A DNA stretch of 64,000 nt from Candidatus Moraniibacteriota bacterium (lineage in GTDB: Bacteria; Patescibacteriota; Minisyncoccia; Moranbacterales; UBA1568), in assembly GCA_028711705.1 (NCBI GenBank), contig JAQTRS010000003.1:109966-173965 (forward strand). Reading direction: 5' to 3'. Numbering within the stretch: position 1 is the stretch's first letter; every line of letters begins with the position of its first letter. A program made the position numbers and the translations under genes. The notes beneath the pieces were generated by a model, which searched no databases, was not told the origin of the DNA, and worked only from the letters and a program-made list of their open reading frames with translations. Of this stretch, positions 33,338-50,458 are shown piece by piece.

Positions 33338-34711
33338 ATGATATCGTATATGGGCATATTTTCAAAACAAAAAAACATCATCTTTATTTCCCATTCACGC
33401 TTGCGTGCAGTGCAGGTGAATCTGGGGCGTGCCAATGCAGGGAAGGTGATCGAGGATATCGTATGGAACAAAGAGACATTGCCATCGATACTTTCGGTTA
33501 TCCGTACAAAAATTGGGAGCGATATCCAGCTCGCACTAAGCGAAGATTTGGTATACGTCGTAAGTTTCGCTTTGAAAAACGCGACGAAATACACCCGTCT
33601 GACGATAAAGCAGGAGGCTTCGAGCTTTATCCCTGAGAATTTAGACGAGGTGCCTTGGGATTTCCGCAGTATCGCTGCTATCGTCGGCGATAAGCGTATC
33701 GGTGTCAGCAAGGGGGTGCAGGTAGCAGCGGTTTCGAAAGTTTTCCTGCACGACATCGCGCCGGCATTCGTATCGGCCGGTTTCGTGGTGGAGGCGATGG
33801 AGGCTGAATCATGCGCTTTAGCAAGACTGATGCATGATCAGGCCAGTCCGATACTTATCGTGCATACGGACCATGATAGAACCCTGCTAGTTATTCTTGA
33901 GCGCGGCGTCGTAATGGCAACACAAAATTTTGCGGAATCCATACATTCGGATGATATCGAGAGGTTCATAAGTTCGGCGCAGAAACATTTTTCATTGCGT
34001 ATCGCATCGGTTATTTTTTCCGAAGAATCGACGAAATCGCTCGGCGATGTGAGGGATTCGCTTCAGAGCAAGGGCTTTTCGGTGCAAGAGGCTTCTTTTG
34101 ACCCTATTCTCGGTCTTGCTTTGAAAAAAGATATCAGAGGAAATGATGCAGACGTATTGAATGTCAATCTGCTACCTCAAGAGAAACGAAACTTTTTGAG
34201 CCTCATACGGAGCCCTCGTGAAAAGCGATTACTGATCATTTTTTTTATTGTTTTTATCCTCGGATCGGTTGCAGTATCTGGGATGTTTATGTTTAATCGT
34301 TCAGTAAAGGCACCGATAAAGCAGGAGTCTGTCATAGCGGATATTCCTATTGAGGTTGCGAAACCCTCTGTGCCGCAAGATAATGCAGACGGTCTTGTGC
34401 CTCCATCCGGATCTGGTGCTGTCGCTGATTATGCGATCAGCATTCTTAATGGAAGTGGCATCCGGGGTGAGGCAGCCGGAGTAGAGAAGTTGGTTCGTGC
34501 GGAAGGCGCGACAAAGGTCCGTATCGGCAATGCAGATAACAATTCGTATACCAAAACCAAGATACGGGCAAAAAAAACCGTGCCTCCTTCGATGTCTCAA
34601 TCGATTGTGAAGGTATTGTCTTCGCGTTACGTTGTGGAAGATGTCGAAATATTGGATGATGGTGCGGAAGATGATATTATGGTAATAGTTGGCAGTCAAA
34701 AAAACGAATAA
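33338..34711 (+). CDS. PilM-PilN fusion protein with C-terminal LytR_C-like domain
   Basis: About 280 aa of cytoplasmic PilM-like region, then the PilN hallmark LNVNLLPQEKR immediately before a TM helix (LLIIFFIVFILGSVAVSGMF). The C-terminal segment (ADYAISILNGSGIRGEAAGVEKLV...VKVLSSRY) resembles the LytR_C domain. Confidence 0.55.
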   Translation: MISYMGIFSKQKNIIFISHSRLRAVQVNLGRANAGKVIEDIVWNKETLPSILSVIRTKIGSDIQLALSEDLVYVVSFALKNATKYTRLTIKQEASSFIPENLDEVPWDFRSIAAIVGDKRIGVSKGVQVAAVSKVFLHDIAPAFVSAGFVVEAMEAESCALARLMHDQASPILIVHTDHDRTLLVILERGVVMATQNFAESIHSDDIERFISSAQKHFSLRIASVIFSEESTKSLGDVRDSLQSKGFSVQEASFDPILGLALKKDIRGNDADVLNVNLLPQEKRNFLSLIRSPREKRLLIIFFIVFILGSVAVSGMFMFNRSVKAPIKQESVIADIPIEVAKPSVPQDNADGLVPPSGSGAVADYAISILNGSGIRGEAAGVEKLVRAEGATKVRIGNADNNSYTKTKIRAKKTVPPSMSQSIVKVLSSRYVVEDVEILDDGAEDDIMVIVGSQKNE

Positions 34712-34724
34712 AAGGATATATTTT

Positions 34725-35201
34725 ATGAAGCAGTCTGGTTTTCGGACAGAAAAAGGATTCACTCTTATCGAACTTCTTTTGGTGATAGGGATTATTTCAG
34801 TTTTGGCAGTCGTTGTGTTCGTTGCGCTTGATCCCGCGAAACGATTTGCGGATGCGCGTGATGCGAGGCGAAATTCCGATGTCCAAAATATCCTCAGCGC
34901 TATCCATCAATATATTATCGACAACAAAGGCGCTTTGCCTTCCGGACTCGGTACGACTGAAAATCAGATCGGCACGGCTACTTCCGGATGCGGCCTCGTG
35001 GCGGGCGAGTGCAATGTTGGTGCCACCGCCTGTCTCGATATGTCCGCTAATTTGGCGAAGTATCTCAAGTCGATACCGACCGATCCGCAGAACGGTACGG
35101 CTGGTACGACGCATTATTCCGTTCAAACAGATGTTAATGGCATCGTGACCGTACGCGCATGTGATACGGAAGGAACGACTGCTATCTCGATTTCGCGCTG
35201 A
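34725..35201 (+). CDS. type IV pilin (major pilin candidate)
   Basis: Class III signal KG-FTLIELLLVIGIISVLAVVVFVALDPAKRF. C-terminal Cys pair (CGLVAGECNVGATAC) for a disulfide loop. Paralog of the 48002 gene. Confidence 0.75.
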   Translation: MKQSGFRTEKGFTLIELLLVIGIISVLAVVVFVALDPAKRFADARDARRNSDVQNILSAIHQYIIDNKGALPSGLGTTENQIGTATSGCGLVAGECNVGATACLDMSANLAKYLKSIPTDPQNGTAGTTHYSVQTDVNGIVTVRACDTEGTTAISISR

Positions 35202-35291: not shown

Positions 35292-36365
35292 ATGACCATG
35301 CATCAATCCATACGAACCTCTATTCAGAAACTCTTTTCCTTGCAGGTCGGTTTTTTTCTTATTCTCGCTTTGCCTGCGAGTACGAATTATAAGTTGAAGG
35401 ATTTCGGTATCGGAAGCGGCGGTTCCTCGACAGCTGCTTCCGCGAATTATAAGGCGGATGTAATAAGCGGCGAAACGGATAATGGCAACCTTACCGGAAC
35501 GACGTATAATTTAGGAACCGGACTTGCGTTTACCAATCAGGCCGATGTTCCGGCGGCGCCGACATTCACCAACCCGAGTAACTATTACAATAAGCTCAAG
35601 ATCGTTCTTGACGCGTCGAGCAATGCGACGGATACGAAATTCGCGATCGCTATCAGCCCCGATGATTTCGTGACGACGTACTATGTGCAAAGCGACGCCG
35701 CTATCGGTATGACATTGGGATCCGAGGACTATCAAACCTCTACCGGCTGGGGGAGTGCATCCGGGACGATCATCATCGGTTTGACGCCGAATACGACCTA
35801 TAAAGCGAAAGTAAAGGCGATGCAGGGGGATTTCACGGAAACGGGCTATGGGCCGATCGCCACCGCATCCACGATCAATCCGACTATGACCTTCGATATC
35901 GACGTATCGGCAACGGATACGGATACCAGTCCGCCATTCACGATCAATCTCGGTGACTTAATAGCCAGCACTATCACGGACGGGCCCCAGAAAATATGGG
36001 TTGATTTCTCGACCAACGGGGAGCTTGGCGGACGGGTGTATGTGGTCGCGCAAAATGCGGGGTTGCAAAGTGTTGCGGCGAGCTACAAAATCAATGCGGT
36101 TACAGGAAATCTCTCTGCCTTACCGCAAGGATTCGGTGCGCAGGGATCCTCGGTGGCTAATGGATTATCGATTGCTACGCTGTATGATCTTTCGGGGGAT
36201 AATGTCGGTGTGACAGATACCAACATCCGTGAAATATTTTCTTCAACGTCTCCGACGACAGGAGGACGAGGGTCATTTCTTCTCAAGGCGAAGTCGGCAG
36301 CCACTACGCCATCAGCGAGCGATTATGCGGAAACACTTACTGTTATCGCATCCGCAAGTTTCTGA
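35292..36365 (+). CDS. secreted Thr/Ser-rich surface protein (paralog A1)
   Basis: Signal peptide and a beta-rich T/S/G/N-rich body. C-terminal motif SDYAETLTVIASASF, shared with the 36469 protein (TDYTDTLTVVAAGRF). Confidence 0.55.
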   Translation: MTMHQSIRTSIQKLFSLQVGFFLILALPASTNYKLKDFGIGSGGSSTAASANYKADVISGETDNGNLTGTTYNLGTGLAFTNQADVPAAPTFTNPSNYYNKLKIVLDASSNATDTKFAIAISPDDFVTTYYVQSDAAIGMTLGSEDYQTSTGWGSASGTIIIGLTPNTTYKAKVKAMQGDFTETGYGPIATASTINPTMTFDIDVSATDTDTSPPFTINLGDLIASTITDGPQKIWVDFSTNGELGGRVYVVAQNAGLQSVAASYKINAVTGNLSALPQGFGAQGSSVANGLSIATLYDLSGDNVGVTDTNIREIFSSTSPTTGGRGSFLLKAKSAATTPSASDYAETLTVIASASF

Positions 36366-36468
36366 TTCATGTTCTTTGACAGTATTTTCGTGCATGTTAT
36401 ACTGTAATAAATTAGGTATAAAAATAAAATAAAACAATATGTACCGTGAGATATCCTTAGGAAATGGC

Positions 36469-37497
36469 ATGCGCAAAATCTCTTTCAGCAGCATAGTTGT
36501 TTTCGTTTTGGTTTTGATTCTACCGATACTTTTTTCCGAAGAAGCTCATGCTGCCGGTTTGCAGCAGGCCTATGTCCGCCTCGATCGTTTGGCGGATGGT
36601 GCTACGACCGGGGGGATGGTGTGCGCCAAGTCCGCTACCGCTTCGGTAGAAACGACCGTCAAAGTTACGTTCCCGTCCGGTTTCGCCACGGTGGATACTC
36701 CGGCCAATTGGACGGTGACTACGACTAATATCCCTGCGGATGCGACAGCGTGGATCGGTATCGGTACCGCTTCGGCGGCTTCTGGTCAGGATGTCACGTT
36801 CCCGAGCGGCGATATGGTAGTGGGCACGCTGTATTGCTTCAACTTTACGGGGACAAGCACGCTGACAAACGCCTCTGCTGCGAATAATCTGGTAGGTACG
36901 ATCACGACGCAACTCGCCGGCCCGACTGCTATCGATAGTTCGAGTTATGCACTGTCTATCGTTACGAATGATCAAATCGTCGTATCTGCATCCGTACCTG
37001 CGACATTCTCTTTCGCTTTGAGTGGAAATACTGATACTATGGGTACGTTGTCCACTACGACCGCTTCTTCTACTGGTAAGACCGTGACCATCGGAACTAA
37101 CGCCGCAAGCGGATGGGTGGCCTGGGTTAAAAGCGCCAACGCCGCATTGAATTCTGCCTCGACCGGTGCAACTATCGCTACGGCCGGAACGGTGAATAAT
37201 GCTCCATCGGATCTGGCTGCGCTTACCGGGTATGTGTTGGACGTTGACGTCACGACCGATAGTGCCACTGGTACGGGTTCTGTAACTCAGGCTTCTGATT
37301 ACGGTGCGGAATATAATGGAACCAATACGACTTCCGGAGGTACGCTTTCGACAACCTTCCAGCCGATCGCCGCTTCGAGCGGAACGACCGATGGGGATGT
37401 GCTGACCCTCATAGAACGTGCGAAGATCAGCGCTGTCCAGGGCGCTGCCACCGACTATACGGATACCTTGACCGTGGTGGCTGCCGGACGCTTTTAG
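36469..37497 (+). CDS. secreted Thr/Ser-rich surface protein (paralog A2)
   Basis: Signal peptide MRKISFSSIVVFVLVLILPILFSEEAHA. Same composition and C-terminal motif as the 35292 protein. Confidence 0.55.
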   Translation: MRKISFSSIVVFVLVLILPILFSEEAHAAGLQQAYVRLDRLADGATTGGMVCAKSATASVETTVKVTFPSGFATVDTPANWTVTTTNIPADATAWIGIGTASAASGQDVTFPSGDMVVGTLYCFNFTGTSTLTNASAANNLVGTITTQLAGPTAIDSSSYALSIVTNDQIVVSASVPATFSFALSGNTDTMGTLSTTTASSTGKTVTIGTNAASGWVAWVKSANAALNSASTGATIATAGTVNNAPSDLAALTGYVLDVDVTTDSATGTGSVTQASDYGAEYNGTNTTSGGTLSTTFQPIAASSGTTDGDVLTLIERAKISAVQGAATDYTDTLTVVAAGRF

Positions 37498-37568
37498 GCT
37501 CAAGATATGGTATATATAAAAGGATTCCGGTTCCGTCGGAATCCTTTTTACTTTGAGAGAATGTTCGG

Positions 37569-38651
37569 TTGTTGTATACTGGTGATATTATGAATCATAT
37601 GCGCTTCCAGAATAACAAAGCACTCTTTTTAGGTCTTGTTTTTGTTTTCATCCTCATCCTTTTTCCGTTACCGTCCTCTGCTGCCGATGGCAGTCTTCAT
37701 CTCGTCACATCGCCGTTGCCTATCAACCTGGTCACGACACCAGGCTCTTCCGTCACGACCCCTATCAAGATCAAAAACGGAGGCACACAAACAGAACAGC
37801 TCAAGATTACCTTGATGAAATTCAAGGCCTATGAATCCAATGGGCAACCGCAATTGATGGATCCGGAACCGACGGACGATTTCCTTACATGGGCTTCTTT
37901 TTCAGAAGATACGTTCACTGCTGCTCCCGATGAATGGAAAACTATCACCGCAACCTTCAATGTCCCGCAGGATGCGGCATTCGGATACTATTATGCTATT
38001 GTTTTTTCGCGTGCTCATGATGAAATTCCGACCGATTCGAAACAGACGGCCGTTGTGGGAGGCACCGCCGTTTTAGTGCTCCTCGAGGCCCGTGTCGATG
38101 ATGCGAAACGCTCCGTCGAGGTGACTGAATTCAGCACGGACAAGCAGATCTATGAATTCCTCCCGGCAACATTTACTGTCAAGCTCAAAAATACCGGCAG
38201 CGTTCATGTCGCGCCAAGAGGCAATATCTTCATCAACAAAGGAGATGAACATGACGTCGCGCTGCTTGAGATCAATGCCAATAAGGGGAATATCTTGCCC
38301 AATTCGACGAGAGATTTTAAGGAACCCTGGAAGGATGCTTTTCCGGTGTATGTGGAAAAAAAGCAGGATGGGAAAGTGGTCCTGGATGAAGCCGGCAACC
38401 AGGTGATGGAGCTTGTATGGGACTTCGGACAGGCTTCCAAACTCAGGTGGGGAAAGTATACCGCCAAGATGCTCCTCATTTACGATGATGGTCACCGGGA
38501 TGTCCCGATCGAAGGAGAGGTCTCCTTTTGGGTGGTGCCGTGGAGGTTGATCGGTGTCGGATTGTTCATCCTTGTTTTCGTGTTGATCGGTTTGAAGAAT
38601 ACACTGCAGAATATGTGGAAAAACGTGCACGGCTGGTTTGAGAAAAAGTAG
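37569..38651 (+). CDS. cell-surface protein, signal peptide + C-terminal TM anchor (paralog B1; DUF916/DUF3324-like architecture)
   Basis: Signal peptide, an ectodomain of about 300 aa with HVAPRGNIFI, and a C-terminal TM (LIGVGLFILVFVLIGL) with a short basic tail. Confidence 0.5.
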   Translation: MLYTGDIMNHMRFQNNKALFLGLVFVFILILFPLPSSAADGSLHLVTSPLPINLVTTPGSSVTTPIKIKNGGTQTEQLKITLMKFKAYESNGQPQLMDPEPTDDFLTWASFSEDTFTAAPDEWKTITATFNVPQDAAFGYYYAIVFSRAHDEIPTDSKQTAVVGGTAVLVLLEARVDDAKRSVEVTEFSTDKQIYEFLPATFTVKLKNTGSVHVAPRGNIFINKGDEHDVALLEINANKGNILPNSTRDFKEPWKDAFPVYVEKKQDGKVVLDEAGNQVMELVWDFGQASKLRWGKYTAKMLLIYDDGHRDVPIEGEVSFWVVPWRLIGVGLFILVFVLIGLKNTLQNMWKNVHGWFEKK

Positions 38652-38678
38652 GGTATAACAGTTGTATACTCAAATAGA

Positions 38679-39653
38679 ATGATGCGAATACGAATAATGG
38701 CAGGGAGGATATTTTTTGTGGCAAGCACGCTGTCTTGCTTCTTTGCGAGCCCGTTTTCCGCATGGGCTGATGAGGATCAAAAGGGGATATCGGTGAGCCC
38801 GATGTTTCAGGAAATATCGCTGGGCGAAGGACAATCGAGTCAGACATTTTCTATCGAAGCGTTCAATACGACCGATACCCTGATCACGCTGCGGTTGTCG
38901 GTGCTTGATTTCGGATCATTGGACGAGTCTGGCGGCGTGGCTTTTTTGGGTGCCGAACAGAACTTCGAAAAGCAGTACAGTATCGCTTCCTGGATACGGC
39001 TCGATCGCGACGCTCTGGTGCTCGGACCGGGCGAATCGCAGTCTGTTCAGGTAACCTTTGAAAACCGGGACTCGCTTTCTCCTGGCGGGCATTATGGCGC
39101 CGTCGTATTCAAGGTGGAGAATAGCGGTTCAGATACGGTGGATGAGAATGGCAAATCCAAGATCGCTATCAGCCAATCGTTTTCATCGCTCGTCTTCGCG
39201 AAGAAAGTCGGAGGGGTGCTCTATGATCTCAATATGCGCAGCGTTGAGAGAGAGACGAACTGGTTTCATCTGCCAGCAAGTATCACGACGCGCTTCCAGA
39301 ACAAGGGCAATGTGCACGTGGTACCACGAGGAACAATCGTTGTGACGGATCCTTTGGGAAAGGTTGTACAGAAGGGGGTTATCAATCCGGAGTCGGCCAT
39401 CATTTTGCCCGAAACATTCCGTTCGTACGTGACGCGACCGGTACTTTTAGGAGCCGCCCTTGTTCCGGGATACTATACGCTCACGACACAGTACCGCTAT
39501 GACGGGCGAGATGATGTCATTACGCATAGCTTTCGTTTTACGTATGTGCCGTTTTTTGAAATAGTCCCGATGATCGTGCTGCTCGGAGGTTTCGTGTGGT
39601 GGCGAAAGAAGAAAGTGGGCGCTGAAAAATCGAAAGTGAACCGTAGCGCATAG
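38679..39653 (+). CDS. cell-surface protein paralog B2
   Basis: Same architecture as the 37569 protein: HVVPRGTIVV, C-terminal TM IVPMIVLLGGFVWW and a KKK tail. Confidence 0.5.
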   Translation: MMRIRIMAGRIFFVASTLSCFFASPFSAWADEDQKGISVSPMFQEISLGEGQSSQTFSIEAFNTTDTLITLRLSVLDFGSLDESGGVAFLGAEQNFEKQYSIASWIRLDRDALVLGPGESQSVQVTFENRDSLSPGGHYGAVVFKVENSGSDTVDENGKSKIAISQSFSSLVFAKKVGGVLYDLNMRSVERETNWFHLPASITTRFQNKGNVHVVPRGTIVVTDPLGKVVQKGVINPESAIILPETFRSYVTRPVLLGAALVPGYYTLTTQYRYDGRDDVITHSFRFTYVPFFEIVPMIVLLGGFVWWRKKKVGAEKSKVNRSA

Positions 39654-39656
39654 CCT

Positions 39657-40286
39657 ATGAATGAAGAAGATATTCCTGAAGCAAAGCCGAAAAATATGGT
39701 GAAAAAGTTAGTATTCCTTTTGATGTGCGCGGCCATGTTTGCCGGCGTATGGATGGTGACGCGGATGCAACAACCTTCTCAGGGAGTCATCAGGAAGAGT
39801 CCGACACAAGTGAGTAGCGTGACAGCTCCGCCTCAGGAGAAGATCCGCCTCGAGGGAGAGTATCTTTCATTCGCGCATCTTTCTTCGTATACGCCGGTGG
39901 CGAAGCTTGAAGAATCAGAAGCGAAAGACGGAGAAGTTTCTGTCAAAAAACCGGGAGCATTCTTGCAATCCGATTTCCTTATCGCTTATACGGCCGCATC
40001 GTCCAAAAAAATAGCCGTTTCCGTAGAGTCCTTGCCGAGCAGCAATCTTGAGGATAATGCTTCGTTCAAATTTCGTATTTCGAGCCCAAAACTGTATACT
40101 CAAAGTATGGCTGATATCGGCAAAGAAAAAGTGATTCTCTTTGTGCGGGATGGGGATACGCGCGAGCAGTCGGTGTTTCTGAGACATAATGCTTTGGTGG
40201 TGCCGGTCGTTCTTTCCTCATCAAATACGAGTTTGGAATCTATGCGAGAGGAACTTCTGGCGATTGCCAACAGTGTCGAATGGTAA
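39657..40286 (+). CDS. membrane-anchored hypothetical protein
   Basis: N-terminal TM (LVFLLMCAAMFAGVWMV), then a soluble domain of about 170 aa. No recognised motif. Confidence 0.45.
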   Translation: MNEEDIPEAKPKNMVKKLVFLLMCAAMFAGVWMVTRMQQPSQGVIRKSPTQVSSVTAPPQEKIRLEGEYLSFAHLSSYTPVAKLEESEAKDGEVSVKKPGAFLQSDFLIAYTAASSKKIAVSVESLPSSNLEDNASFKFRISSPKLYTQSMADIGKEKVILFVRDGDTREQSVFLRHNALVVPVVLSSSNTSLESMREELLAIANSVEW

Positions 40287-40314
40287 TAGAGGCATTAAGT
40301 CAGTGTGCGAACGT

Positions 40315-41790
40315 ATGAAAAATAAAAAACAATTACAAAGAGCGAGGAAGTGGATGCGTCTGCACGTCGTTTTGACAGCGATCGCATTCGGGGTGTATTT
40401 TTTGGCGGCTTTTTTGTACAGTCCCCATTTTTTTCTCGTTGATCTGAAGGATAAAATATATGCCTTGGCGGATACAATCGGTGTGACCGCACGGGTTTTG
40501 GATGCGCCGGTTAAGCCGGTTGTGAGCGTTACGACGACATGCGATACCATTAAGGGAGAACTCTCCGTTACGGCAGATTGGGCGGATGATGAGAATTCAT
40601 ATACGTATGATATGTTTCGCGGTGGGAGTTTGCTTATGACCAACCTTACAAACTCATCATACAAGGATACCAATGTCACTGTTGGGACGAATTATGAGTA
40701 TTTCGTGGTAGCGAATGGGCCGATGGGTCCGGGAACGGCCACGTCCGATACCGTATCCATCACGACGCCTGCGGAGTGTATAAGGGTATTACCGAGTCCT
40801 TTGGTAGCGGCGACATCTATCGGTACTATGGATATCGCCGGACAATCCGGTGGGGCGCAGACGCTTGATCAGACCCCGTTGTTCTCCGGTACGACCAATA
40901 TTCCATTTGCTATTATCGATATCGTGGTTCATAGTAATGAAACTGTAGTGTTGCAGACAATCGCAAATGCTAATGGGTATTGGGAAATAGAGTCCCCTGT
41001 ACAGCTATCTTTCGGAGAACATACGATATATATCACTGCGACCGATCCTTCCGATAGTACGCGCACAGCAACGTATAATATCGTATTTTATGTGAATCAG
41101 GTGACAGCAGTGTCTGATAGCGATAGCGGGAATACGAGTAGTCATAGGAAGGCATCGCGATCACGGACGGTTTCGACCGCGTCTTCTTTATCTACGAAAC
41201 AATCATCGATACATACGATACCGACTTCGCCGGTCACGCCAGTTCTCATTCCTTTCGATTTCATTCTGCGTACTGAGGGCGACAATAGAACTTTTTTTCA
41301 GGGAAAAACGATCAGTGCGGAAGTAGCCATTACTCGGGTTGATGCGAATAATGCTTCTGCAGGAGGAACGATTCGTTATGCGCTTACGGATGGGGATGGC
41401 AATGCGGTCATATCTGTCGAAAAATCGATAGAAGGCTTGAGGGCAGGCAAAGTGATACGGGAAAGCATTCCGCTTCCTGCTGACTTGAAACAGGGTGAGT
41501 ATGTGTTGCTTGTTGAGTTTTCGAGTGGGAAATTCACTATCGTGAGGACGATGGATATTTCCGTTATGGAGCTGCCTTTGTCTGATCTTGGTGGCGGAGT
41601 TGTCATTACGTATCCGCAATTCGTGCGCAACATCGGATGGATCGCCTTCCTTTCACTCACATTATTGCTAGGATGGTTTTTGCTTTGGATCCGCGAATAT
41701 TGGTTGTACGCGCATGCAGCGCAGCATGTTGCTGAGAGGAATTTGGCTGGAAAAGGCCTTATAACGAAGAGAAAGGGGGTGTCTTCATAA
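40315..41790 (+). CDS. membrane protein with FN3/Ig-like extracellular domains
   Basis: N-terminal TM. FN3-like segment (YTYDMFRGGSLLMTNLTNSSYKDTNVTVGTNYEYFVVANG). C-terminal TM IGWIAFLSLTLLLGWFLLWI. ATG 40315 is preferred over the overlapping upstream start. Confidence 0.5.
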   Translation: MKNKKQLQRARKWMRLHVVLTAIAFGVYFLAAFLYSPHFFLVDLKDKIYALADTIGVTARVLDAPVKPVVSVTTTCDTIKGELSVTADWADDENSYTYDMFRGGSLLMTNLTNSSYKDTNVTVGTNYEYFVVANGPMGPGTATSDTVSITTPAECIRVLPSPLVAATSIGTMDIAGQSGGAQTLDQTPLFSGTTNIPFAIIDIVVHSNETVVLQTIANANGYWEIESPVQLSFGEHTIYITATDPSDSTRTATYNIVFYVNQVTAVSDSDSGNTSSHRKASRSRTVSTASSLSTKQSSIHTIPTSPVTPVLIPFDFILRTEGDNRTFFQGKTISAEVAITRVDANNASAGGTIRYALTDGDGNAVISVEKSIEGLRAGKVIRESIPLPADLKQGEYVLLVEFSSGKFTIVRTMDISVMELPLSDLGGGVVITYPQFVRNIGWIAFLSLTLLLGWFLLWIREYWLYAHAAQHVAERNLAGKGLITKRKGVSS

Positions 41791-41791
41791 T

Positions 41792-42109
41792 ATGGAAACT
41801 TTTTTAGTGGTAGCCGAGGCGATGACGATATTGGCGGCGATGATGTCGATAGTGTATACGGTTGGTATCGTATGGCGGGTGGAAAAAGAACTTGATGTGT
41901 CATATAAATTTTTCGCATTCGCTATCGTGTTTTTTTTGATTGCCGAACTTCTGAACGTGTATTATGTTGGACATGGTGTAAGCTTTGCTGTGGCTGAAAA
42001 ATTGAGCAAGGTCGTGTTTTCTGCATTGTTTTTGGTCGGGACCCTCTATATGCGCGATATTATCCGAAAACTCGACGGTGAAAAGCGGAAACAAAAGGGT
42101 AGGAAATAG
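41792..42109 (+). CDS. small membrane protein (hypothetical)
   Basis: 105 aa with three hydrophobic segments and a basic tail. No motif recognised. Confidence 0.35.
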   Translation: METFLVVAEAMTILAAMMSIVYTVGIVWRVEKELDVSYKFFAFAIVFFLIAELLNVYYVGHGVSFAVAEKLSKVVFSALFLVGTLYMRDIIRKLDGEKRKQKGRK

Positions 42110-42195
42110 CCACAAAAAGTACGTGTATCAAAAATCCGGCAATCGACCGGATTTTTTCATTTTTTATTTGTTGCGCCGATGTATTTTATGGTATT

Positions 42196-45100
42196 ATGAA
42201 GGAGGAAAATCATACAAAAATGAAGAACACATATCGATTCCGGTTTCTGGCATTTCTCGCTATCTTTTTAGTGGTTGGTTTTTTTGTTTCTACTCAGGAG
42301 TATTCGTTTGCGGCGACCGGTACGAACAAGAAAATAAATTTTCAAGGAAAGGTGGTCAATAGCAACGGAACTAATGTTGCTAACGGATCATACGGCTTTA
42401 TTTTCAGCATTTATACCGTTTCAAGCGGTGGCGCGAATGTGTGGACGGAAAGCAAATCCCTGACCGTGACCGACGGTATTTTCCAGACTGACTTAGGGGA
42501 TGTTACTACGCTTCCAGGATCTATCGACTTCAATACGGACAACATTTACCTTGGTATCAATTTCAACGGTGATGGCGAGATGTCGCCACGTGTGCAATTC
42601 GATGCCGTTCCTCAGGCATTCAACGCTCAGAAAGTAGCAGGACTTACAGTAACCGACACGACGGGCACACTGACGATTCCGAATGGTAAAACCATTTCTT
42701 TCGCGGATACTTTTTCAACTTCCGGTGCTTTCGCAACGACGCTTACTGCAACCGGAACAACCACTGTGACGCTTCCGACCACCGGGACACTTGCGACGTT
42801 ATCAGGCAGTGAGATTTTGAACAACAAAACCATCGGAAGCGCAGGCCTTATTTTTTCGGGAGCGGCTACGGATATCACGACTACTTCTGGAGAATCATTG
42901 GTGATTGTTGCGGCCGGTGCAGGAACGGTAGATATTCAGGACGCCACTACCGTTGACTCGCTTACCGCGGATACGGGGGGTATTTCTATTGCCGCCGGTC
43001 AATCGTATACGGGTTCGGGCGCGGTGACGCTTTCATCAGGAGGTGCTGCCGGTCTGACGATCGATTCTGCATCAGATGTGCTTACAGTGGCCACGGGAGA
43101 CTATCTTGCACTGAGTCATTCCGGCGTTGCGAGCGCCGCGGCAGGATATATCTGGTATGATTCGGGGGATAATAAATTCAAGATCAACGAAAACGGTACG
43201 ACCAAGACGTTATGTAATCTTACAGACGGTGGCTGCGGATCGGGTGGCGCGAGCGATCTGCAGACAACGTATGGTAATGATGCTGATGGATCGAATGCTA
43301 CGATTTCACTGACGGCTGCCGATGATGGTTTGGTCTTCACTAATCCGACCTCCGGTGGTACGGATGCGAGCTCTTTCCTTGCTTATTTCAACCAGCAGAA
43401 TACGACGGCCGCTGTATCGGCAGTCGATATTACTCAGGCTTCCAATGCTTCCAATGCGGTCAATATTACAGCCAATGCTATCGATGGCGAGATAGGACTT
43501 GATATCACGGCTAACGGTCTGACGTCGGGTAAGGGTATAGATGTCTCGTCATCATCGACTGCATTTACAGGCAATCTTTCCAATATATCTTTGACAGGAT
43601 CCAGTGCTGCTAATACCGGTAATGTGCTTGCGGTGTCAAATACTGGTACGGCGAATGCTAACACCTCGTTTTTTATCAATCATCAGGCAACTGGAACTGG
43701 CAATCTCGCTATGCGCGTGGATGATCAATCAAGTGATGCGACGCCGTTCGTTATCGATGGCAATGGCAATGTCGGCATCCAAACGAGTGCGCCTACAGAT
43801 GCTCTTCAGGTGGGAAGTGCGACGAATCGTGCCAATATGACAGCTTATGGTGATATTACGGCGGAAGGATATGATGTCCAACGCAGTCTGGCCGGCATCA
43901 TTGATATCTTTGTGTATGATACGACGCGTGATGCGGATGGCGGGGAATGGCGCAACTCGATCATTTCACAGCAGATGTCTTGGGCGACGGAAACCAAAGA
44001 TGATGGTATCGGCGATGCTTGCGATATCGCAGCTGATGATCGCTGCGGCAAGTCGATTTTTCCTCGTAAGGCGATTATAGCTACTACAGCGAGCGGCCTG
44101 TATATTTTTGATGGTGCGGACAATTCGCTATGGATGAAGTTTACCCAAGCAGGTACGTATGCTTTGGGTGCAGATACGAATAATAACCCGACAGGAGTGG
44201 GTGCGCAGAATGGTGTCATAGTAGTCGGAACCAATGGCACATCGGCTACCGGTATGTACGCTTTCGATTTTAAGCAGGATGCGATGTATCGTTATGATGC
44301 AACGAATCGCGTGCAGGGTGATAAAAATATCGGCAATCGAAATTCGACGGTGTCCTACGCGACCAATGCGAATACAAATTTTGCTCTTGTGAACTCGGTT
44401 GTTAATGATGTTTCGATCGCACTCATCACTTCATCGACTGAAGGTATGATCAACACGTTGACGCTACCATTAGATAGCGCAACAAGTCCGATGCGAGGCG
44501 TGACGCTTATTGCTGCAGCGACGGATACGGGGGTTTCCGTCGTCAATACTGCCAATCAAAGAGTGTTTAGTTATTCGGAAACGACAAACGATGACTATAA
44601 TCAGGTTGTCATCACAAGCCGTGGAAGGATGTATGCGACCAATGAGACCCAGCAGCAATTAGAAGAATGGAGAAATATCGATAGGGATGTGGCATCGGAA
44701 CTCAACGGAAACCCGGATCGATTCTATGATCAGACTGTCGGACGATCACCTATTACAACAGGAACGGCACCGACTATTTCCACTTCGCCCGGAACCCTTG
44801 CCGTTATCGAACGAAACTCAGCTGCTCGCGAATCAGCTGCTACAACCCTTCTTGAGACTGGTGATATCGTTTTTGTCGGTACGGATCAGGGTTTGGCCGA
44901 AGTGCATACTTCGGGAGGAAGCCTTGTTGGCGCCGCATGGTCCAAAATAACAACTTCGACGGTAGCGACTCCGTATATGGTCGGCGCTGCACGCTCAGTC
45001 TATCTTTTTGAGGAGGCTGCCGGTTCGACGGTCGCAGCAAGTTCTATCGGTGCGGCCGGTACGACCAATAACCCACTTAGATCAGCAGTGACAGGAACTG

Positions 45101-47970
45101 CCCCGACATTTGGTGGCGACGGTATTCGGGGAGTGAGTGTCAATTTCAATAACAATTCTTATTTATGTTCAGACGCGAACTCGGATGGTACGTGTGATGC
45201 GGATGCTGACTTCAATGCTGGTACGGTGAGTTTCACCGTTTCTTTATGGTTCAAGCATTCGACTACGGCAGCAGCCGATACGTTGTTCGAACGATGTTAT
45301 ACTCCCGTGGCGGCAACAGCGGCCGTCGGGTGTATATATGCCGGAATGCATACGACCGGGCAGATCCGTTTCGCTATCGATAGCCTTACGACGTGGACGT
45401 ATAACACTACCTATGATGACACTATTCTTTCGACTGCAACCTATAATGATAACCAATGGCATCATGCTGTGTTCACTAATACTGACACGGATATCTGTAT
45501 GTATATCGATGGGAAGCAGGCAGTAGCGTGCGACAGCACTATTGCAGCTACCGCGACAATGGATGCTTCGCAGGTATTGACGGTCGGAGGGTCGTGTGCT
45601 GGCGCGAACTGTGTGACGGGTGCGAACTTTTGGGATGGATCGATTGATGAGCTCGTGTGGAGTTCGAACGGTGGTACGACAAATGATGGATTAGCAGCGC
45701 AAAGCGCCAACAAACTTTATTTGGATGGTCGGGCCCACATGATACGGCCTTCTGATACGGTGGTTGATGCCACAACTTTTTCATCGACTACTATAGGGGA
45801 TTCCGCAGAAAATTATGTTCCAGGGTCGTTCGTGGGACTGGTTGTGGAGTTGAACGGTGGAACCGGCGCCGGACAAACGAGAACGATTATTTCTAACGAT
45901 GCGACTACCTTTACTGTGTATCCGGCATTCACGACTGTGCCCGATGCTACGACTGACTATCAGGTAAGTCCCGCGAAGCTGTATGGAGTGAACGGGGTTA
46001 CGGCTATTTCAGCGGATATGCCGACCAATCTCAACAAGATCCGCAAGGTCTATGTGGGAACGAGTAATGGATCGGATGGCGGAGGCATCAGTGTCTTTAC
46101 CAATGCCGGCGCTGGTTCAATTAAGACGGATGTGATTCATTCGGATGCCGGTTATCCAGCGGATGATTTCGGTTCGACGTGGTCAGGAACAGATGCTGAC
46201 GATATTAGCGCTATCGCTTCCTATTCCGATACGGTAGCCTTCGGTTCTGGTGCATTTTTGCGAGCGAAACGAAATGAAGTCAGTTTGAAGCAGCTTCAGT
46301 TAGATACTATAGGAGGGCTTGAAGATATTCGTCAAGAATTGGTCTCCAAACAGCTCTTCGGATCGACTCAGGACGTACTTGGTTTGGGTCAGGGAGCCGA
46401 CCTTGCAGAGCGTTATTATTCTGATGAATCTCTGATGGCGGGCACTATCATTTCTATAGATCCATCGCTTGATAATGGCGTTAAAAAGTCGACAGGGGCG
46501 TATCAGAAAGATATGCTCGGCGTTGTTGCTACCAAGCCAGGAATCACTTTGGGATCGGTACAAGATAACGCTTATCCTGTGGCTCTTGTTGGACGAGTGC
46601 CTGTTCTTGTGACGAATGAATCGGGGCAGATCTATGCAGGGGATAGGATAACTTCTTCTTCGGTTCCAGGCTATGGTATGCTTGCTATCAAAGCGGGGAG
46701 AGTGGCCGGAACCGTACTCGAGGATGCTTCGGGTTGGGATACCTGTCCTGCCGGAGTGATCACCGATGGACGAAATATCAAGTGCACAAGCGTGATGGTT
46801 TTTGTCAATCTTACGGATTATAACGGTCGATCGATCGATGTCGCGATGAAAGAGCACGCTCAGCAGCAAGCTCTTACCGGTGGCAATATCGATGGTTTGC
46901 AAGTGGACGGGTCAGTGGATACCGCGGTTCTTCCTGGCGACGAGGCTAATACCAATGGCGTCATCACTATTCTCAATACAGCTAGCAATGATCAGGATTT
47001 TTCGAGGCAGCAGCAAATACTATCCTTTTTGAATGATCTTAAAGAGGAACAAGCGAAATTTTCGCAGCAATCATCGGAGATATTTACCGATCAATTGTAT
47101 GCTGCGGACGGCGTCGTTACCCCGCAGTTGGTTGCAGATCTTATCATCGCCAAGCATATCAAGGCGGATTCGATAGAAGGTTTGGAGGTGTTTACGGATA
47201 AAATCGGCAGTCTTTCCGATCGCATCACGAATCAGGACAAGGACGTGACGACGCAGCAGCTTACGGCCGGAGATGCTGAAATCGGTTCATTGGCACTCGA
47301 AAGCGCGAAGGTGTCGATGAATATGGATGTCGCCGGCAAGCTTAAGGTGGGAGGCTTGATTGTCAGTGACAGTGCCACATTCAAGAATGATACTTTGTTC
47401 AATAAACTCGTTTCATTTATCGGAAAGGTTGTCTTCAAGAGCGATGTCGCTTTTGAAAAAACACCGACCTTTGGTAAGGATACGGCCGGATTCGCCAAGA
47501 TTGCCAAGGGTGCCGATCGGGTGGAAATCGTGTTTGGAACCGTGTATGAGAGGACGCCGATCGTGCAGGCGATGATGGTTTTCGATGATGAAAAGGCACT
47601 CGATACCGATGCGTCCGATGCGAATTCGGGCAATGATTCCGCGCCAGCCGTTTCCGGAGCGTCTTCTTCCAAAGAAAAAGATACGATCCAAAGACAATTG
47701 CTTGCCAAAAACTATTCGTACTTCGTGGTCAATCGAACTAAAAAGGGCTTCACCATCATTCTCAATAAACCGGCCGATGAAGACCTTGATTTTTCTTGGG
47801 TAGCTATCGCCGTGGCTGACGCGCAGACATTTGAAAGCAAAAAACCTGAACCTGTCGCAGACCCATCGGTTTCGATTCCTGCGATCACTCCTACGGTTTC
47901 GGAAAAAACTAGTATTCCTTTGATCACAGCGCCTACGACATCTCCTACGCCTATCGCGCCGACTTTGTAA
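42196..47970 (+). CDS. giant secreted protein (1924 aa) with LamG/concanavalin-A-like lectin domain and Thr/Gly-rich beta-repeat regions
   Basis: Signal peptide (FLAFLAIFLVVGFFVSTQEYSFAATG). Long T/G/A/S-rich repeats. LamG-like block (VSLWFKHSTT...NQWHHAVFT...DGSIDELVWSS). The likely start is ATG 42220 (MKNTYRF) after the AGGAGG. Confidence 0.75.
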   Translation: MKEENHTKMKNTYRFRFLAFLAIFLVVGFFVSTQEYSFAATGTNKKINFQGKVVNSNGTNVANGSYGFIFSIYTVSSGGANVWTESKSLTVTDGIFQTDLGDVTTLPGSIDFNTDNIYLGINFNGDGEMSPRVQFDAVPQAFNAQKVAGLTVTDTTGTLTIPNGKTISFADTFSTSGAFATTLTATGTTTVTLPTTGTLATLSGSEILNNKTIGSAGLIFSGAATDITTTSGESLVIVAAGAGTVDIQDATTVDSLTADTGGISIAAGQSYTGSGAVTLSSGGAAGLTIDSASDVLTVATGDYLALSHSGVASAAAGYIWYDSGDNKFKINENGTTKTLCNLTDGGCGSGGASDLQTTYGNDADGSNATISLTAADDGLVFTNPTSGGTDASSFLAYFNQQNTTAAVSAVDITQASNASNAVNITANAIDGEIGLDITANGLTSGKGIDVSSSSTAFTGNLSNISLTGSSAANTGNVLAVSNTGTANANTSFFINHQATGTGNLAMRVDDQSSDATPFVIDGNGNVGIQTSAPTDALQVGSATNRANMTAYGDITAEGYDVQRSLAGIIDIFVYDTTRDADGGEWRNSIISQQMSWATETKDDGIGDACDIAADDRCGKSIFPRKAIIATTASGLYIFDGADNSLWMKFTQAGTYALGADTNNNPTGVGAQNGVIVVGTNGTSATGMYAFDFKQDAMYRYDATNRVQGDKNIGNRNSTVSYATNANTNFALVNSVVNDVSIALITSSTEGMINTLTLPLDSATSPMRGVTLIAAATDTGVSVVNTANQRVFSYSETTNDDYNQVVITSRGRMYATNETQQQLEEWRNIDRDVASELNGNPDRFYDQTVGRSPITTGTAPTISTSPGTLAVIERNSAARESAATTLLETGDIVFVGTDQGLAEVHTSGGSLVGAAWSKITTSTVATPYMVGAARSVYLFEEAAGSTVAASSIGAAGTTNNPLRSAVTGTAPTFGGDGIRGVSVNFNNNSYLCSDANSDGTCDADADFNAGTVSFTVSLWFKHSTTAAADTLFERCYTPVAATAAVGCIYAGMHTTGQIRFAIDSLTTWTYNTTYDDTILSTATYNDNQWHHAVFTNTDTDICMYIDGKQAVACDSTIAATATMDASQVLTVGGSCAGANCVTGANFWDGSIDELVWSSNGGTTNDGLAAQSANKLYLDGRAHMIRPSDTVVDATTFSSTTIGDSAENYVPGSFVGLVVELNGGTGAGQTRTIISNDATTFTVYPAFTTVPDATTDYQVSPAKLYGVNGVTAISADMPTNLNKIRKVYVGTSNGSDGGGISVFTNAGAGSIKTDVIHSDAGYPADDFGSTWSGTDADDISAIASYSDTVAFGSGAFLRAKRNEVSLKQLQLDTIGGLEDIRQELVSKQLFGSTQDVLGLGQGADLAERYYSDESLMAGTIISIDPSLDNGVKKSTGAYQKDMLGVVATKPGITLGSVQDNAYPVALVGRVPVLVTNESGQIYAGDRITSSSVPGYGMLAIKAGRVAGTVLEDASGWDTCPAGVITDGRNIKCTSVMVFVNLTDYNGRSIDVAMKEHAQQQALTGGNIDGLQVDGSVDTAVLPGDEANTNGVITILNTASNDQDFSRQQQILSFLNDLKEEQAKFSQQSSEIFTDQLYAADGVVTPQLVADLIIAKHIKADSIEGLEVFTDKIGSLSDRITNQDKDVTTQQLTAGDAEIGSLALESAKVSMNMDVAGKLKVGGLIVSDSATFKNDTLFNKLVSFIGKVVFKSDVAFEKTPTFGKDTAGFAKIAKGADRVEIVFGTVYERTPIVQAMMVFDDEKALDTDASDANSGNDSAPAVSGASSSKEKDTIQRQLLAKNYSYFVVNRTKKGFTIILNKPADEDLDFSWVAIAVADAQTFESKKPEPVADPSVSIPAITPTVSEKTSIPLITAPTTSPTPIAPTL

Positions 47971-48001
47971 ATAAAATGTTTTGGAGGTATACTATAGACA
48001 T

Positions 48002-48478
48002 ATGAATAAACGTTTGCGTCATACATCACACGGATTCACACTGATTGAACTTTTACTTGTTATTGGAATTATCGCCGTACTTGCGGTAGTGGTTTTCGTG
48101 GCGCTTGATCCTGCGAAACGATTTGTGGATGCTCGAAATTCGAGACGGGTTTCCGATGCGCAGTTCATTCTCACCGCGGTACGCCAGTACGTGATCGACA
48201 ATGGTAGTACACTACCGACTGGTCTTGATACAATCGAGAAACAGCTCGGAACAGGCGTCTCAGGGTGTAGTCTTACGTACGGAGTCTGCAGCGCCAATAC
48301 GAATTATTGCCTTGATATGTCAAGCGATTTGGCGAAATATCTCAAGTCTTTGCCATTCGATCCGAAAGAGGGAACGTCCGTGAAAACTCACTATACGATT
48401 CAAGTCGATAGCAACAATATTATCACGGTACGCGCCTGCGATGCTGAAAACAATGAGGAAATAGTCGTTTCAGGTTAA
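48002..48478 (+). CDS. type IV pilin paralog
   Basis: HG-FTLIELLLVIGIIAVLAVVVFVALDPAKRFVDARNSRR is nearly identical to the N-terminus of the 34725 pilin. Conserved Cys pair. RBS ggagg upstream. Confidence 0.75.
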   Translation: MNKRLRHTSHGFTLIELLLVIGIIAVLAVVVFVALDPAKRFVDARNSRRVSDAQFILTAVRQYVIDNGSTLPTGLDTIEKQLGTGVSGCSLTYGVCSANTNYCLDMSSDLAKYLKSLPFDPKEGTSVKTHYTIQVDSNNIITVRACDAENNEEIVVSG

Positions 48479-48583
48479 AGGGTTTTTCTGTTGTCTGTAA
48501 AAAATAAGGCTCATAAACGAGTTTTTCAAAAAATTCTTTTTGGTAGCGAGATTGTTAATGAATGTGAGAGAATCCACAGTTGT

Positions 48584-49576
48584 ATGAGTTTCCGAGTTTT
48601 TTCTTTCAGCATTGCGGTTTTTACAACAGGAGTCGTGTGCGGTGTTTTTGGATATCGGTTTGTACGAGAGGGCACCTTTGTGGATATTCCCGAGGATACT
48701 TCTCGGCAGATTCGGCAAAATAGCCAGTATGTGTACACCAATCCCTTACTTGAATGCGAAGTAGCGCAGGGTGTTATTGATGTTCAAAAAGAAAATTTTC
48801 AGAAGGATCTGGAGAGTTTTGTTTATGATTTGAAGCAGCGGCGCACATTGACGAATGAGTCGATATATTTTCGTGATCTCAATAACGGACCGGCGTTCGG
48901 TGTCGATGCGAGAGAGGAATTTTTTCCTGCGTCATTGCTTAAGGTTCCGGTTATGATGGCTTATTATCGCTGGGCGGAGTCGGAACCCGGCCTTTTGGGT
49001 ACGGAGATTCTGTATGAGGCGCCGAAGGATTTCGGTATGACGCCGACTATTATCCCTCGTGAGCAGCTGACGGTAGGGCAGAGCTATACCGTGGAGGAAC
49101 TTATCCGTAGGATGATCGTTTATTCGGATAATCAAGCATTAAGACTTCTTTCAAGCCGGTTACCTTTGGAAAAGCTTAGAGACTTGTTTAAGATAGTCGG
49201 AGCTAAAGATGAAGTACTGGTTGATGTGAATGCTCAATTGACCGTCAAAGAATATGCTGGATTTTTCCGTATCCTTTTCAATAGTTCGTATCTTTCGCAT
49301 GATAACTCTGAGAAAGCGTTGAGGCTGCTTGCCATGACGGATTATGATGTTGCCCTTAAAGCAGGTGTCCCCCGTGAGGTGATGGTTTCGCATAAATTCG
49401 GAGAGGCAGGGACAGGTGATACGGAACGGCAATTGCACGATTGCGGTATCGTGTATTTCCCAGGGCATCCGTATCTCGCTTGTATTATGACGCGTGGCAA
49501 GGATATGGATGCTTTACGTCAGGCTATCGAGGACACATCACGTTTTATCTATGATAAAATCGATGGGCCATATTGA
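48584..49576 (+). CDS. serine hydrolase, class A beta-lactamase-like fold
   Basis: N-terminal TM. SxxK (ASLLK), SDN (YSDNQA) and a KxG-like (HKFGEAG) motif. The start is uncertain (ORF track gives a TTG at 48491). Confidence 0.6.
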   Translation: MSFRVFSFSIAVFTTGVVCGVFGYRFVREGTFVDIPEDTSRQIRQNSQYVYTNPLLECEVAQGVIDVQKENFQKDLESFVYDLKQRRTLTNESIYFRDLNNGPAFGVDAREEFFPASLLKVPVMMAYYRWAESEPGLLGTEILYEAPKDFGMTPTIIPREQLTVGQSYTVEELIRRMIVYSDNQALRLLSSRLPLEKLRDLFKIVGAKDEVLVDVNAQLTVKEYAGFFRILFNSSYLSHDNSEKALRLLAMTDYDVALKAGVPREVMVSHKFGEAGTGDTERQLHDCGIVYFPGHPYLACIMTRGKDMDALRQAIEDTSRFIYDKIDGPY

Positions 49577-49657
49577 TATCACCTTGTATTATGTGCACAT
49601 ATTTTGTATACTACAGATGATTTACCGGGTTAAAAAAACAAACGTAATTTTACGATT

Positions 49658-50458
49658 ATGGCGAGAATAAAAGAGGTGCCGCATACCACTATTACCGAAA
49701 TGCGTAAAGCGAAAAGCGTGTCCTCTCCGGCCTCAGAGGCCCCAGCTACGAAACGTTTCGGAATGAAAATATTTGGCAAGTTGTTTCTTATTCTGATCTT
49801 TATCGGCGCGGTCGGTGCTGCCGGGTATTTTTATTATCAGTACCGGAAAGTGACCAAAAACGATCAGTCGGCCGAGACGGCTGCATTGGTCAAGGAGTTG
49901 GGAAGTGTGATGGAGCTGCCGACGGATGAGACGCCGACGCTTGCGACCGTGACTGACAAGGAGAAACTTTCGGAGCAACCGTTTTTCAAGAAGGCAGAAA
50001 ATAATGATAAAGTTCTGATCTACGTGAAGGCAGGCAGAGCTATTCTGTATCGTCCCGCAGTGCACAAGATAGTTGACGTATCAACAATTAATGTAACAAA
50101 TGATCAACAGTCTGGATCCGCTTCCGAGAATGCGAACAAAACATCGTCCCAAGCCGTTCCGGCTTCAAGCGACGTTCATCCGACGCTTGCGTTGTACAAC
50201 GGCGCTAAGACCTTGGGCTTGACGTACAAAGTGGAAGAGCAGATCAAGGCGAGTTTTTCGAATGTCGACGTAGCAAAAAAAGAACCGGCTGCTCAAACGA
50301 ACTATGTGAAAACGGTTGTCGTGGATGTTTCTGGAAAATATAATTCGGTGGCGAATGACATTGCGAAGAATCTTTCTGCCGAAGTGAAATCGCTTCCGGA
50401 TGGCGAATCGAAGCCGGATACCGACATACTTGTTATCATAGGAGAAGACAAGTCGTAG
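49658..50458 (+). CDS. membrane-anchored LytR_C-domain protein
   Basis: TM LFLILIFIGAVGAAGYFYY. C-terminal LytR_C-like domain (LALYNGAKTLGLTYKVEEQIKASF...). Confidence 0.6.
   Translation: MARIKEVPHTTITEMRKAKSVSSPASEAPATKRFGMKIFGKLFLILIFIGAVGAAGYFYYQYRKVTKNDQSAETAALVKELGSVMELPTDETPTLATVTDKEKLSEQPFFKKAENNDKVLIYVKAGRAILYRPAVHKIVDVSTINVTNDQQSGSASENANKTSSQAVPASSDVHPTLALYNGAKTLGLTYKVEEQIKASFSNVDVAKKEPAAQTNYVKTVVVDVSGKYNSVANDIAKNLSAEVKSLPDGESKPDTDILVIIGEDKS

Follow-up and report, generated by a model that had tools for sequence, protein, structure and literature searches.

A candidate modular surface fibre encoded beside a Pam-like pilus operon in Moranbacteria

Little is known of how the ultrasmall cells of the Candidate Phyla Radiation (CPR; also named Patescibacteria) locate their hosts and stay attached to them, and hardly any of these bacteria have been cultured. 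This question is raised by a stretch of 64,000 nucleotides (nt) from a Candidatus Moraniibacteriota bacterium (GenBank assembly GCA_028711705.1, contig JAQTRS010000003.1), referred to below as the window, in which one giant open reading frame (ORF) at 42196-47970 on the plus strand encodes a protein of 1924 amino acids (aa) near pilus genes. What could such a protein do for such a cell? The reading favoured here, at a probability of about 0.55, is that the product of the giant ORF is exported by the Sec route and forms a modular fibre on the surface of a Moranbacteria cell, in its construction resembling a phage tailspike or the mosaic adhesive trimers (MATs) of Bdellovibrio. This fibre would probably be trimeric, bind host glycans and be partnered with a Pam-like pilus. 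An earlier note, made from the letters alone, had proposed a candidate host-attachment factor of a reduced-genome bacterium, and this is plausible for a secreted protein with a laminin-G (LamG) domain and tail-fibre-like elements. The protein is divided as follows.

42196-47970, plus strand: giant ORF, 1924 aa, stop included.
42196-42312, plus strand: predicted signal peptide, aa 1-39, with a K/R-rich n-region, hydrophobic aa 12-36 and a cleavage-type site between SFA and AT (sequence and hydropathy).
42313-42675, plus strand: conserved N-terminal beta-rich domain of about 120 aa (aa 40-160), a putative anchoring or docking domain.
42676-43872, plus strand: T/G/S/A-rich stalk, aa 161-559, defined by composition, with a copy number that varies in homologues; contains VGIQTSAPTDAL.
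43873-45165, plus strand: head part 1, predicted beta-propeller-like blades, aa ~560-990 (AlphaFold2 model md171583479c8, Foldseek).
45202-45660, plus strand: LamG/concanavalin-A-like lectin domain, an insert of the head at aa 1003-1155 (Pfam PF13385).
45673-45975, plus strand: predicted helix aa 1168-1183 and small beta domain aa 1216-1257 (GGTGAGQTRTI...PDATTDY), from DSSP of the AlphaFold2 model.
45988-46347, plus strand: head part 2, further predicted blade-like strands aa 1268-1359 and exit helix aa 1364-1384 (AlphaFold2 model).
46390-46875, plus strand: autochaperone (tandem beta-tulip) domain like domain D4 of phi29 gp12, aa 1399-1560, including D1402-L-A-E1405 (nt 46399-46410) and VALVGRVPVLVT.
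46876-47469, plus strand: linker, aa 1561-1758, with predicted helices 1599-1622 and 1670-1682 and low-confidence segments (C-module model).
47470-47835, plus strand: predicted C-terminal H-type-lectin-like beta-sandwich, aa ~1759-1880 (C-module model).
47836-47967, plus strand: disordered Pro/Thr-rich tail with no anchor motif (composition, C-module model).

The gene is genuine. The reading frame is uninterrupted and is the longest of the window, as the earlier note had said. Its product has 100% identity to an entry in NCBI, 'MAG: hypothetical protein PHT88_03470 [Candidatus Moranbacteria bacterium]', the same ORF recurs on a separate contig of a Logan assembly (run SRR22315508), and about 70 near-full-length homologues are intact among the matches listed (38-65% identity, 1.7-3.2 thousand aa). 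Therefore, a frameshift or an assembly artefact is unlikely, the latter being the kind of error that had been named as a possible refutation. The true start may be the alternative ATG at 42220 (MKNTYRF...), with AGGAGG located at 42200-42205; the alignment of many homologues begins only near residue 8-10 of the giant protein.

Several features indicate that the protein is extracytoplasmic, namely a single hydrophobic segment in the whole protein, which is N-terminal, the richness in T, G, S and A, and 14 cysteines grouped as seven close pairs. The N-terminus looks like a Sec signal cleaved by signal peptidase I (SPase I), and residues A39 and A40 are almost invariant across 25 homologues. The signal peptide proposed earlier thus stands on the layout of the sequence, with a basic start, hydrophobic residues 12-36 and the site between SFA and AT. 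It is followed directly by the N-domain, an alignment of which was scanned against one genome per GTDB species and revealed 349 relatives; the loci analysed below are the best 80 of these 349. In these 80, which belong to many CPR classes, the N-domain is 63-83% identical over its length. The sole NCBIfam match of the protein is Bdello_MAT_N ('mosaic adhesive trimer family chimeric fiber protein'), which aligns to aa 37-110 with E 1e-3, and the same model matches 8 of 25 homologues at E<=0.01, with a best value of 1.3e-7, suggesting that the N-domain is remotely similar to that of Bdellovibrio MAT fibres. MATs are surface fibres of Bdellovibrio that consist of a signal peptide, a conserved domain of about 130 aa rich in beta structure, a trimeric fibre and variable adhesive tips, and some of them bear a C-terminal S74 chaperone (PMC10769870). 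The same architecture is found here, with a signal peptide, a conserved beta-rich domain and a fibre with exchangeable adhesive modules. A tblastn search of aa 37-540 against phages found nothing, and neither did a PDB sequence search with the single giant protein.

The part proposed to bind the host is the head. Laminin_G_3 (PF13385), which is the only Pfam detection in the protein, covers aa 1003-1155 with E 6.9e-12 and 46.2 bits against a gathering cut-off of 27.6. Laminin_G_2, tested for the PF02210 family, was matched in 17 of 25 homologues, and a 25-sequence family profile searched against the PDB found neurexin-1-alpha (E 1e-9) and the laminin alpha LG domain (E 5e-4) and nothing else. 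The lectin block that the earlier note recognized is thereby confirmed. Its setting is different from the repeats in which the block had been supposed to be embedded. AlphaFold2 was run on aa 530-1400 with a 62-sequence alignment, and the resulting model (mean pLDDT, predicted local distance difference test, 83.8; pTM, predicted template modelling score, 0.87) shows a predicted beta-propeller-like fold with LamG inserted. Four-strand blade-like units are modelled at aa ~625-990 and, further along, at aa ~1268-1359, with LamG, the helix and the small beta domain between them, and the pTM of 0.87 indicates that the head is one compact assembly. In Foldseek searches of the head against the PDB, trypanosomal sialidases and trans-sialidases ranked first (E 2e-10), followed by members of glycoside hydrolase (GH) families GH43 and GH32 and by the binding domains of botulinum toxin and NTNH. 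The TM-scores of these matches are low (0.2-0.3), indicating a match to the architecture of a propeller plus a concanavalin-A-like lectin and not to a family.

These matches raise the possibility that the giant protein acts mainly by catalysis, as a depolymerase or glycosidase of tailspike type that would use its propeller head to cut polysaccharide on the host surface, rather than as a pure lectin. The ranking of sialidases, GH43 and GH32 as the best structural matches speaks for it, as do the several Arg, Asp, Glu and Tyr residues that are invariant in the propeller region across the 62 sequences, and the order of anchor, stalk, propeller with lectin-like insert and C-terminal chaperone parallels that of K1F endosialidase (PMC3357383). 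Nevertheless, TM-scores of 0.2-0.3 reflect architecture alone, and no glycosidase, BNR or sialidase model of Pfam or NCBIfam matched the query or any of 25 homologues. In addition, the 10-residue spacing of the invariant R705 and R715 would not fit the arginine triad of GH33. An enzymatic main role is thus unlikely, and the head is better read as the glycan-binding part of a fibre.

A link to phage fibres lies at the C-terminal end. A second model, of aa 1390-1924 built from 61 sequences, contains two high-confidence domains, at aa ~1399-1560 and ~1759-1880, each with pLDDT above 90, and helices and disordered linkers between them. Residues ~1399-1560 adopt, in the model, the fold of the gp12 C-terminal fragment. 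In the profile alignment, the CPR domain starts with 'aDlAEnY' aligned to S691-D-F-A-E-Y-F of gp12, so that D1402-L-A-E1405 falls on gp12 residues 692-695, where the C-terminal fragment of gp12 begins. Xiang and colleagues reportedly found in 2009 that gp12 is cut between residues 691 and 692. D1402, A1404, E1405 and Y1407 are invariant in 61 of 61 sequences. In gp12, the C-terminal tandem beta-tulip autochaperone is needed for trimerisation of the tailspike and is cleaved off after folding (bioRxiv 10.1101/216911; PMC3357383; PMC9863714). The same region of the giant protein is 40% identical over about 95 aa to the C-terminus of gp359 of jumbo phage PA5oct (family-profile E 1e-23), a virion protein confirmed by mass spectrometry and encoded beside a T4 gp10-like/long-tail-fibre gene. 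The domain also matches PHROGs 6427, 19602 ('tail fiber protein') and 22593; a PHROGs search with the whole protein found nothing, and only the isolated C-domain matches. The impression of a phage tail-fibre-like motif gained from VALVGRVPVLVT was therefore correct, since this motif sits in a tail-fibre-type domain.

For the end sandwich at aa ~1759-1880, tailspikes and pyocin fibres also supplied matches, in their C-terminal sandwiches, and Pfam H_lectin (PF09458) matches 5 of 25 homologues. No Pfam match to Peptidase S74 and no SDxxxK motif were found in the giant protein. A check for a C-terminal sorting signal had been proposed; neither such a signal nor a C-terminal transmembrane segment is present in the giant protein, and a gp12-type autochaperone fold and an H-type-lectin-like domain are predicted there instead. 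The LPXTG test for a sortase anchor likewise found no C-terminal hydrophobic segment, and the sole LPTTG of the protein is internal (aa 193). This LPTTG, at 42772-42786 (aa 193-197), lies inside the conserved stalk motif TLPTTGTL with no hydrophobic tail after it, and might be misread as a sorting motif for sortase.

Between the N-domain and the head lies the stalk. T, G, S and A together make up 48-60% of aa 101-500, in agreement with the long T/G/A/S-rich stretches described earlier. The beta-repeats or beta-helix which had been read into them fared less well, as BLAST found no internal repeats within the giant protein, nor any paralogue of it in the window, and a beta-helix was not demonstrated. 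A stalk zone of aa ~256-555 is duplicated in some longer homologues only. A motif scan located VGIQTSAPTDAL once, at aa 526-537 (nt 43771-43806), within the longer motif GNVGIQTSAPTDALQV that the earlier note had pointed out. VGIQTSAPTDAL is one residue longer than the capping-loop consensus of MAT and S74 proteins, V-G-G/N-pi-x-x-P-x-x-x-L (PMC10769870), and the exact consensus does not occur in the giant protein; the motif thus resembles the capping loop and is not a match to it.

The comparison of relatives reveals how the parts are combined. When the query was compared by BLAST with 120 listed relatives, the N module (aa 1-~300) was found in about 110 at 50-76% identity and the C module (aa 1400-1924) in about 107, and the central module (aa ~537-1400) in only about 70, which gives two conserved ends and an exchangeable middle. 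The best 80 of the 349 relatives come from Moran-, Berkel-, Andersen-, Levyi-, Woese- and Gottesmanbacteria, Saccharimonadia and many third-party metagenome-assembled genomes (MAGs) with doubtful labels. Of the 42 loci that extend at least 9 kb downstream, nine have the propeller/LamG module and 16 the gp12-like domain. Two Saccharimonadia fibres carry CBM_4_9 in place of LamG. Keeping the ends while swapping the carbohydrate-binding modules of the middle suggests diversification of host range by module exchange. The two Saccharimonadia loci are L037 (9863-13759) and L013 (9851-16969), with CBM_4_9 modules at E ~1e-10, and one of their fibres has a sub-threshold NCBIfam match to 'phage head spike fiber' (E 4.7e-7). 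The loci L008, L014, L017, L018, L020, L021 and others come from MAGs titled 'uncultured Bdellovibrionales / Pseudomonadales / Gammaproteobacteria' and carry the fibre-plus-operon locus at 65-80% identity to the Moranbacteria protein; these labels are probably wrong.

Which surface structure could the fibre work with? The window holds a type IV pilus locus, with PilB at 28460, PilC at 30287, minor pilins at 31357-33254 and a PilM-LytR_C protein at 33338. The giant gene is flanked by two pilins, 34689-35201 and 47981-48478, which are paralogues with 59.5% identity. Its closest surroundings are as follows.

35292-42109, plus strand: upstream partner operon of seven ORFs, encoding two pilin-like secreted proteins, two proteins with a signal peptide and a transmembrane helix at the C-terminus, and three membrane or immunoglobulin (Ig)-like proteins.
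42130-42156, plus strand: terminator-like hairpin and T-run just upstream of the giant gene.
47981-48478, plus strand: type IV pilin, paralogue of 34689-35201, separated from the giant gene upstream by 10 nt that contain no terminator.

The hairpin suggests that the giant gene has its own promoter, and the 10-nt gap without a terminator makes co-transcription with the following pilin probable. In the upstream operon, the secreted proteins of about 355 aa encoded at 35292-36365 and 36439-37497 have in common a C-terminal domain of about 140 aa (hhalign 98%, E 4e-14) and end in ...TLTV(I/V)A..F, and the products of 37569-38651 and 38679-39653 are paralogues, each with a signal peptide and a C-terminal transmembrane helix. 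The partnership of this operon with the fibre is constant. In the 55 loci with at least 7 kb upstream, the fibre gene is always preceded by two or more of the four operon families, two of which are pilin-like and secreted and two of which combine a signal peptide with a C-terminal transmembrane helix; 48 of these loci have all four, and only 11 have a type IV pilin homologue within 10 kb.

Recently, Pam pili were described in Candidatus Mycosynbacter amalyticus, with two-domain pilins exported by Sec (PamB has 38.7 kDa) that assemble by donor-strand exchange, two PapD-like chaperones, PamC and PamD, each with a C-terminal transmembrane helix, a tip subunit PamT and no usher (Troman et al. 2026, bioRxiv 10.64898/2026.03.03.709456). 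Across CPR lineages, the pam operon is consistently accompanied by a 'tail fibre-like protein', which was left uncharacterised in that study; a word search found no mention of Moranbacteria in the text of the preprint (bioRxiv 10.64898/2026.03.03.709456). Like pam, the operon of the window encodes secreted pilin-like proteins of ~36-37 kDa with a common C-terminal domain, as well as two proteins, paralogues of each other, that combine a signal peptide with a transmembrane helix at the C-terminus, and a fibre-like gene stands constantly beside a CPR-specific chaperone-type pilus operon in both cases. It is likely that the upstream operon encodes Pam or a sister system. PDB profile searches of three neighbour families gave no significant match. 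The chaperone-like proteins of 37569-38651 and 38679-39653 show weak matches to fn3_5, to WxLIP_PGBD (Pfam E 6e-3) and to EfmWxLIP1 in the PDB (9i25, E 0.6), which hints that chaperones of the Pam type may be related to the WxL surface-complex loci of Firmicutes.

The earlier note had tied the giant gene to the type IV pilus and placed it between the two pilin paralogues. The flanking pilins are real; the first of them, however, is separated from the giant gene by the seven non-pilin ORFs of the upstream operon, and across loci it is the four-family operon that accompanies the fibre (55/55 against 11/55 for type IV pilins). An accessory or tip adhesin of the surrounding type IV pilus, which PilB, PilC and the paired pilins would present or deploy, would be consistent with a location between these pilins and downstream of PilB, PilC, minor pilins and PilM, with the likely co-transcription with the pilin 10 nt away, and with the host binding by type IV pili in Saccharibacteria (PMC12206443). 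Such an adhesin is nevertheless improbable. The giant protein has an SPase-I-type signal and lacks the prepilin N-methylation motif, the N_methyl model matching its neighbours and not the protein itself; and loci L003 and L004 possess fibre and operon with no called gene that matches N_methyl within 10 kb. Still less credible is a prophage remnant or cargo, that is, a true phage tail fibre or tailspike, which would account for the homology of the C-domain to jumbo-phage virion proteins, the PHROG 'tail fiber protein' and phi29 gp12 and was rejected on genomic context, as no phage genes lie nearby, the giant protein bears a signal peptide, the same chromosomal neighbourhood is kept across many CPR lineages, and neither the N-terminal 500 aa, compared with phages, nor the whole protein, compared with PHROGs, gave any match.

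Other genes of the neighbourhood deserve mention. After the second pilin (window 47981-50458) follow a class-A beta-lactamase-like gene (48491-49576) and a gene for a 266-aa membrane protein; downstream of the fibre in 42 related loci, the membrane protein is present 24 times and the beta-lactamase-like gene 12 times. At 22406-27977, shortly before the pilus genes, two histidine kinases, one of them PAS-rich, stand on either side of an aminotransferase gene, and no response regulator was noted among the ORFs scanned.

Taken as a surface fibre, the giant protein may work in the following way. After removal of the signal peptide, the conserved N-domain of about 120 aa would dock the fibre to a conserved partner on the cell surface, probably one of the proteins of the Pam-like, chaperone-assembled pilus encoded next to it, as the invariant synteny and the conservation suggest. 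The T/G/S/A-rich stalk, the length of which varies between homologues, would serve as a spacer. At its end, the propeller-like head with LamG would bind glycans of the host-cell surface; here the folds are modelled and the ligand is conjectured. The gp12-type intramolecular chaperone fold, by homology, most likely nucleates the assembly of a homotrimer, and self-cleavage between A1401 and D1402, at the invariant D-L-A-E motif, may follow. The H-type-lectin-like sandwich at the end might form a second glycan-binding or trimerising knob, or might be lost together with the chaperone.

Several points weigh against this reading. Trimerisation, cleavage, surface location and ligand are all inferred, and the structure models are of single chains that cover aa 530-1400 and 1390-1924. 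At the N-terminal end, the Bdello_MAT_N match of the query reaches 18.9-21.1 bits, far below the cut-off of 60 bits, and hhalign detected no profile similarity between the fibre N-domain and the pilin-like neighbour families (probability <1%), so that a pilin-like N-domain related to these neighbours was rejected at the sequence level. At the C-terminal end, Pfam Peptidase_G2 matched neither the query at E<=1 nor 25 homologues at E<=0.01, and H_lectin did not match the query. With 525 aa the C-module is three times the size of gp12 D4, and cleavage may not occur at all, since the shedding of a folded lectin-like domain would also be wasteful. As for the partner, the operon is linked to pam by its architecture and by a weak match to NCBIfam CPR_pilus_PamT alone, of 22-26 bits against a cut-off of 240, in the N-terminal ~60 aa of a 357-aa operon protein and in two of three orthologues tested. 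No Pam model matched the other operon proteins of the window, of two other loci and of two Saccharimonadia loci. Moreover, a terminator-like hairpin separates the operon from the fibre gene.

A bolder version of the fibre reading would have the fibre physically mounted on the Pam-like pilus through its N-domain, forming a hybrid organelle in which a donor-strand pilus carries a phage-tailspike-type trimeric head and the exchangeable middle sets the host, as the main host-range determinant of many Patescibacteria. This version is speculative and on balance rather doubtful. The fibre in itself is a testable candidate for host recognition by ultrasmall CPR bacteria, belonging to a family which is widespread (349 relatives among GTDB species representatives) and combines a docking end that hardly varies, a chaperone motif that does not vary at all and a glycan-binding middle that can be exchanged. 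If the reading is true, host specificity could be read from sequence in metagenomes, D1402 and E1405 would be defined targets for mutation, and phage receptor-binding proteins, the MAT fibres of predators and the adhesins of episymbionts would be linked in evolution.

How does this fibre compare with known systems? In chaperone-usher systems, the adhesin gene usually stands last in a donor-strand-exchange pilus operon. Like the tip adhesins PapG and FimH of those systems, the giant protein bears a lectin domain. Unlike them, it is five to six times larger, has tailspike-type assembly elements and contains no detected pilin-like (incomplete Ig) domain, and hhalign found no relation of its N-domain to the pilin-like neighbours.

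Phi29 gp12, the pre-neck appendage or tailspike (PDB 3GQH, Peptidase_G2), is similar in having the D-phi-A-E-x-aromatic motif at the N-terminal boundary of the domain and an autochaperone-type domain C-terminal to the receptor-binding part. In the giant protein, however, about 360 residues (helices and the lectin-like sandwich) trail this domain, and a propeller/LamG head precedes it, whereas in gp12 the corresponding part is a beta-helix with teichoic-acid hydrolase activity; the Pfam Peptidase_G2 hidden Markov model is blind to the giant-protein domain. In PA5oct gp359 and the proteins of PHROGs 6427, 19602 and 22593, the domain is C-terminal as well (ADLAERY...GRVPVKV...GDRL), and these proteins share only the C-domain with the giant protein.

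The MATs of Bdellovibrio bacteriovorus (Caulton et al. 2024, PMC10769870; NF053851) provide a comparison for the whole design. As in MATs, a signal peptide directly precedes a conserved and beta-rich domain of about 120-130 aa, whose sequence is weakly similar (far below the model cut-off), the fibre is long, adhesive glycan-binding modules are exchanged mosaically between paralogues or orthologues, and, as in one MAT subclass, a conserved chaperone is C-terminal; MATs, too, serve a bacterium whose way of life depends on other bacteria. The differences are equally clear. The variable part of the giant family is central, between two conserved ends, whereas MATs vary at the C-terminal tip; the chaperone is like gp12/G2 and not S74, with no SDxxxK motif; the giant gene is tied to a pilus operon, which is absent from MATs; and the organism is a monoderm CPR bacterium, in which the trimeric state is only presumed. 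Each part of the giant protein is of a known kind, be it LamG, the tailspike autochaperone, the lectin knob or the MAT-like anchor. The combination appears to be undescribed, with two conserved ends around an exchangeable middle, a chaperone of gp12 type rather than S74 type in a cellular fibre, and an obligate partnership with a CPR-specific pilus operon.

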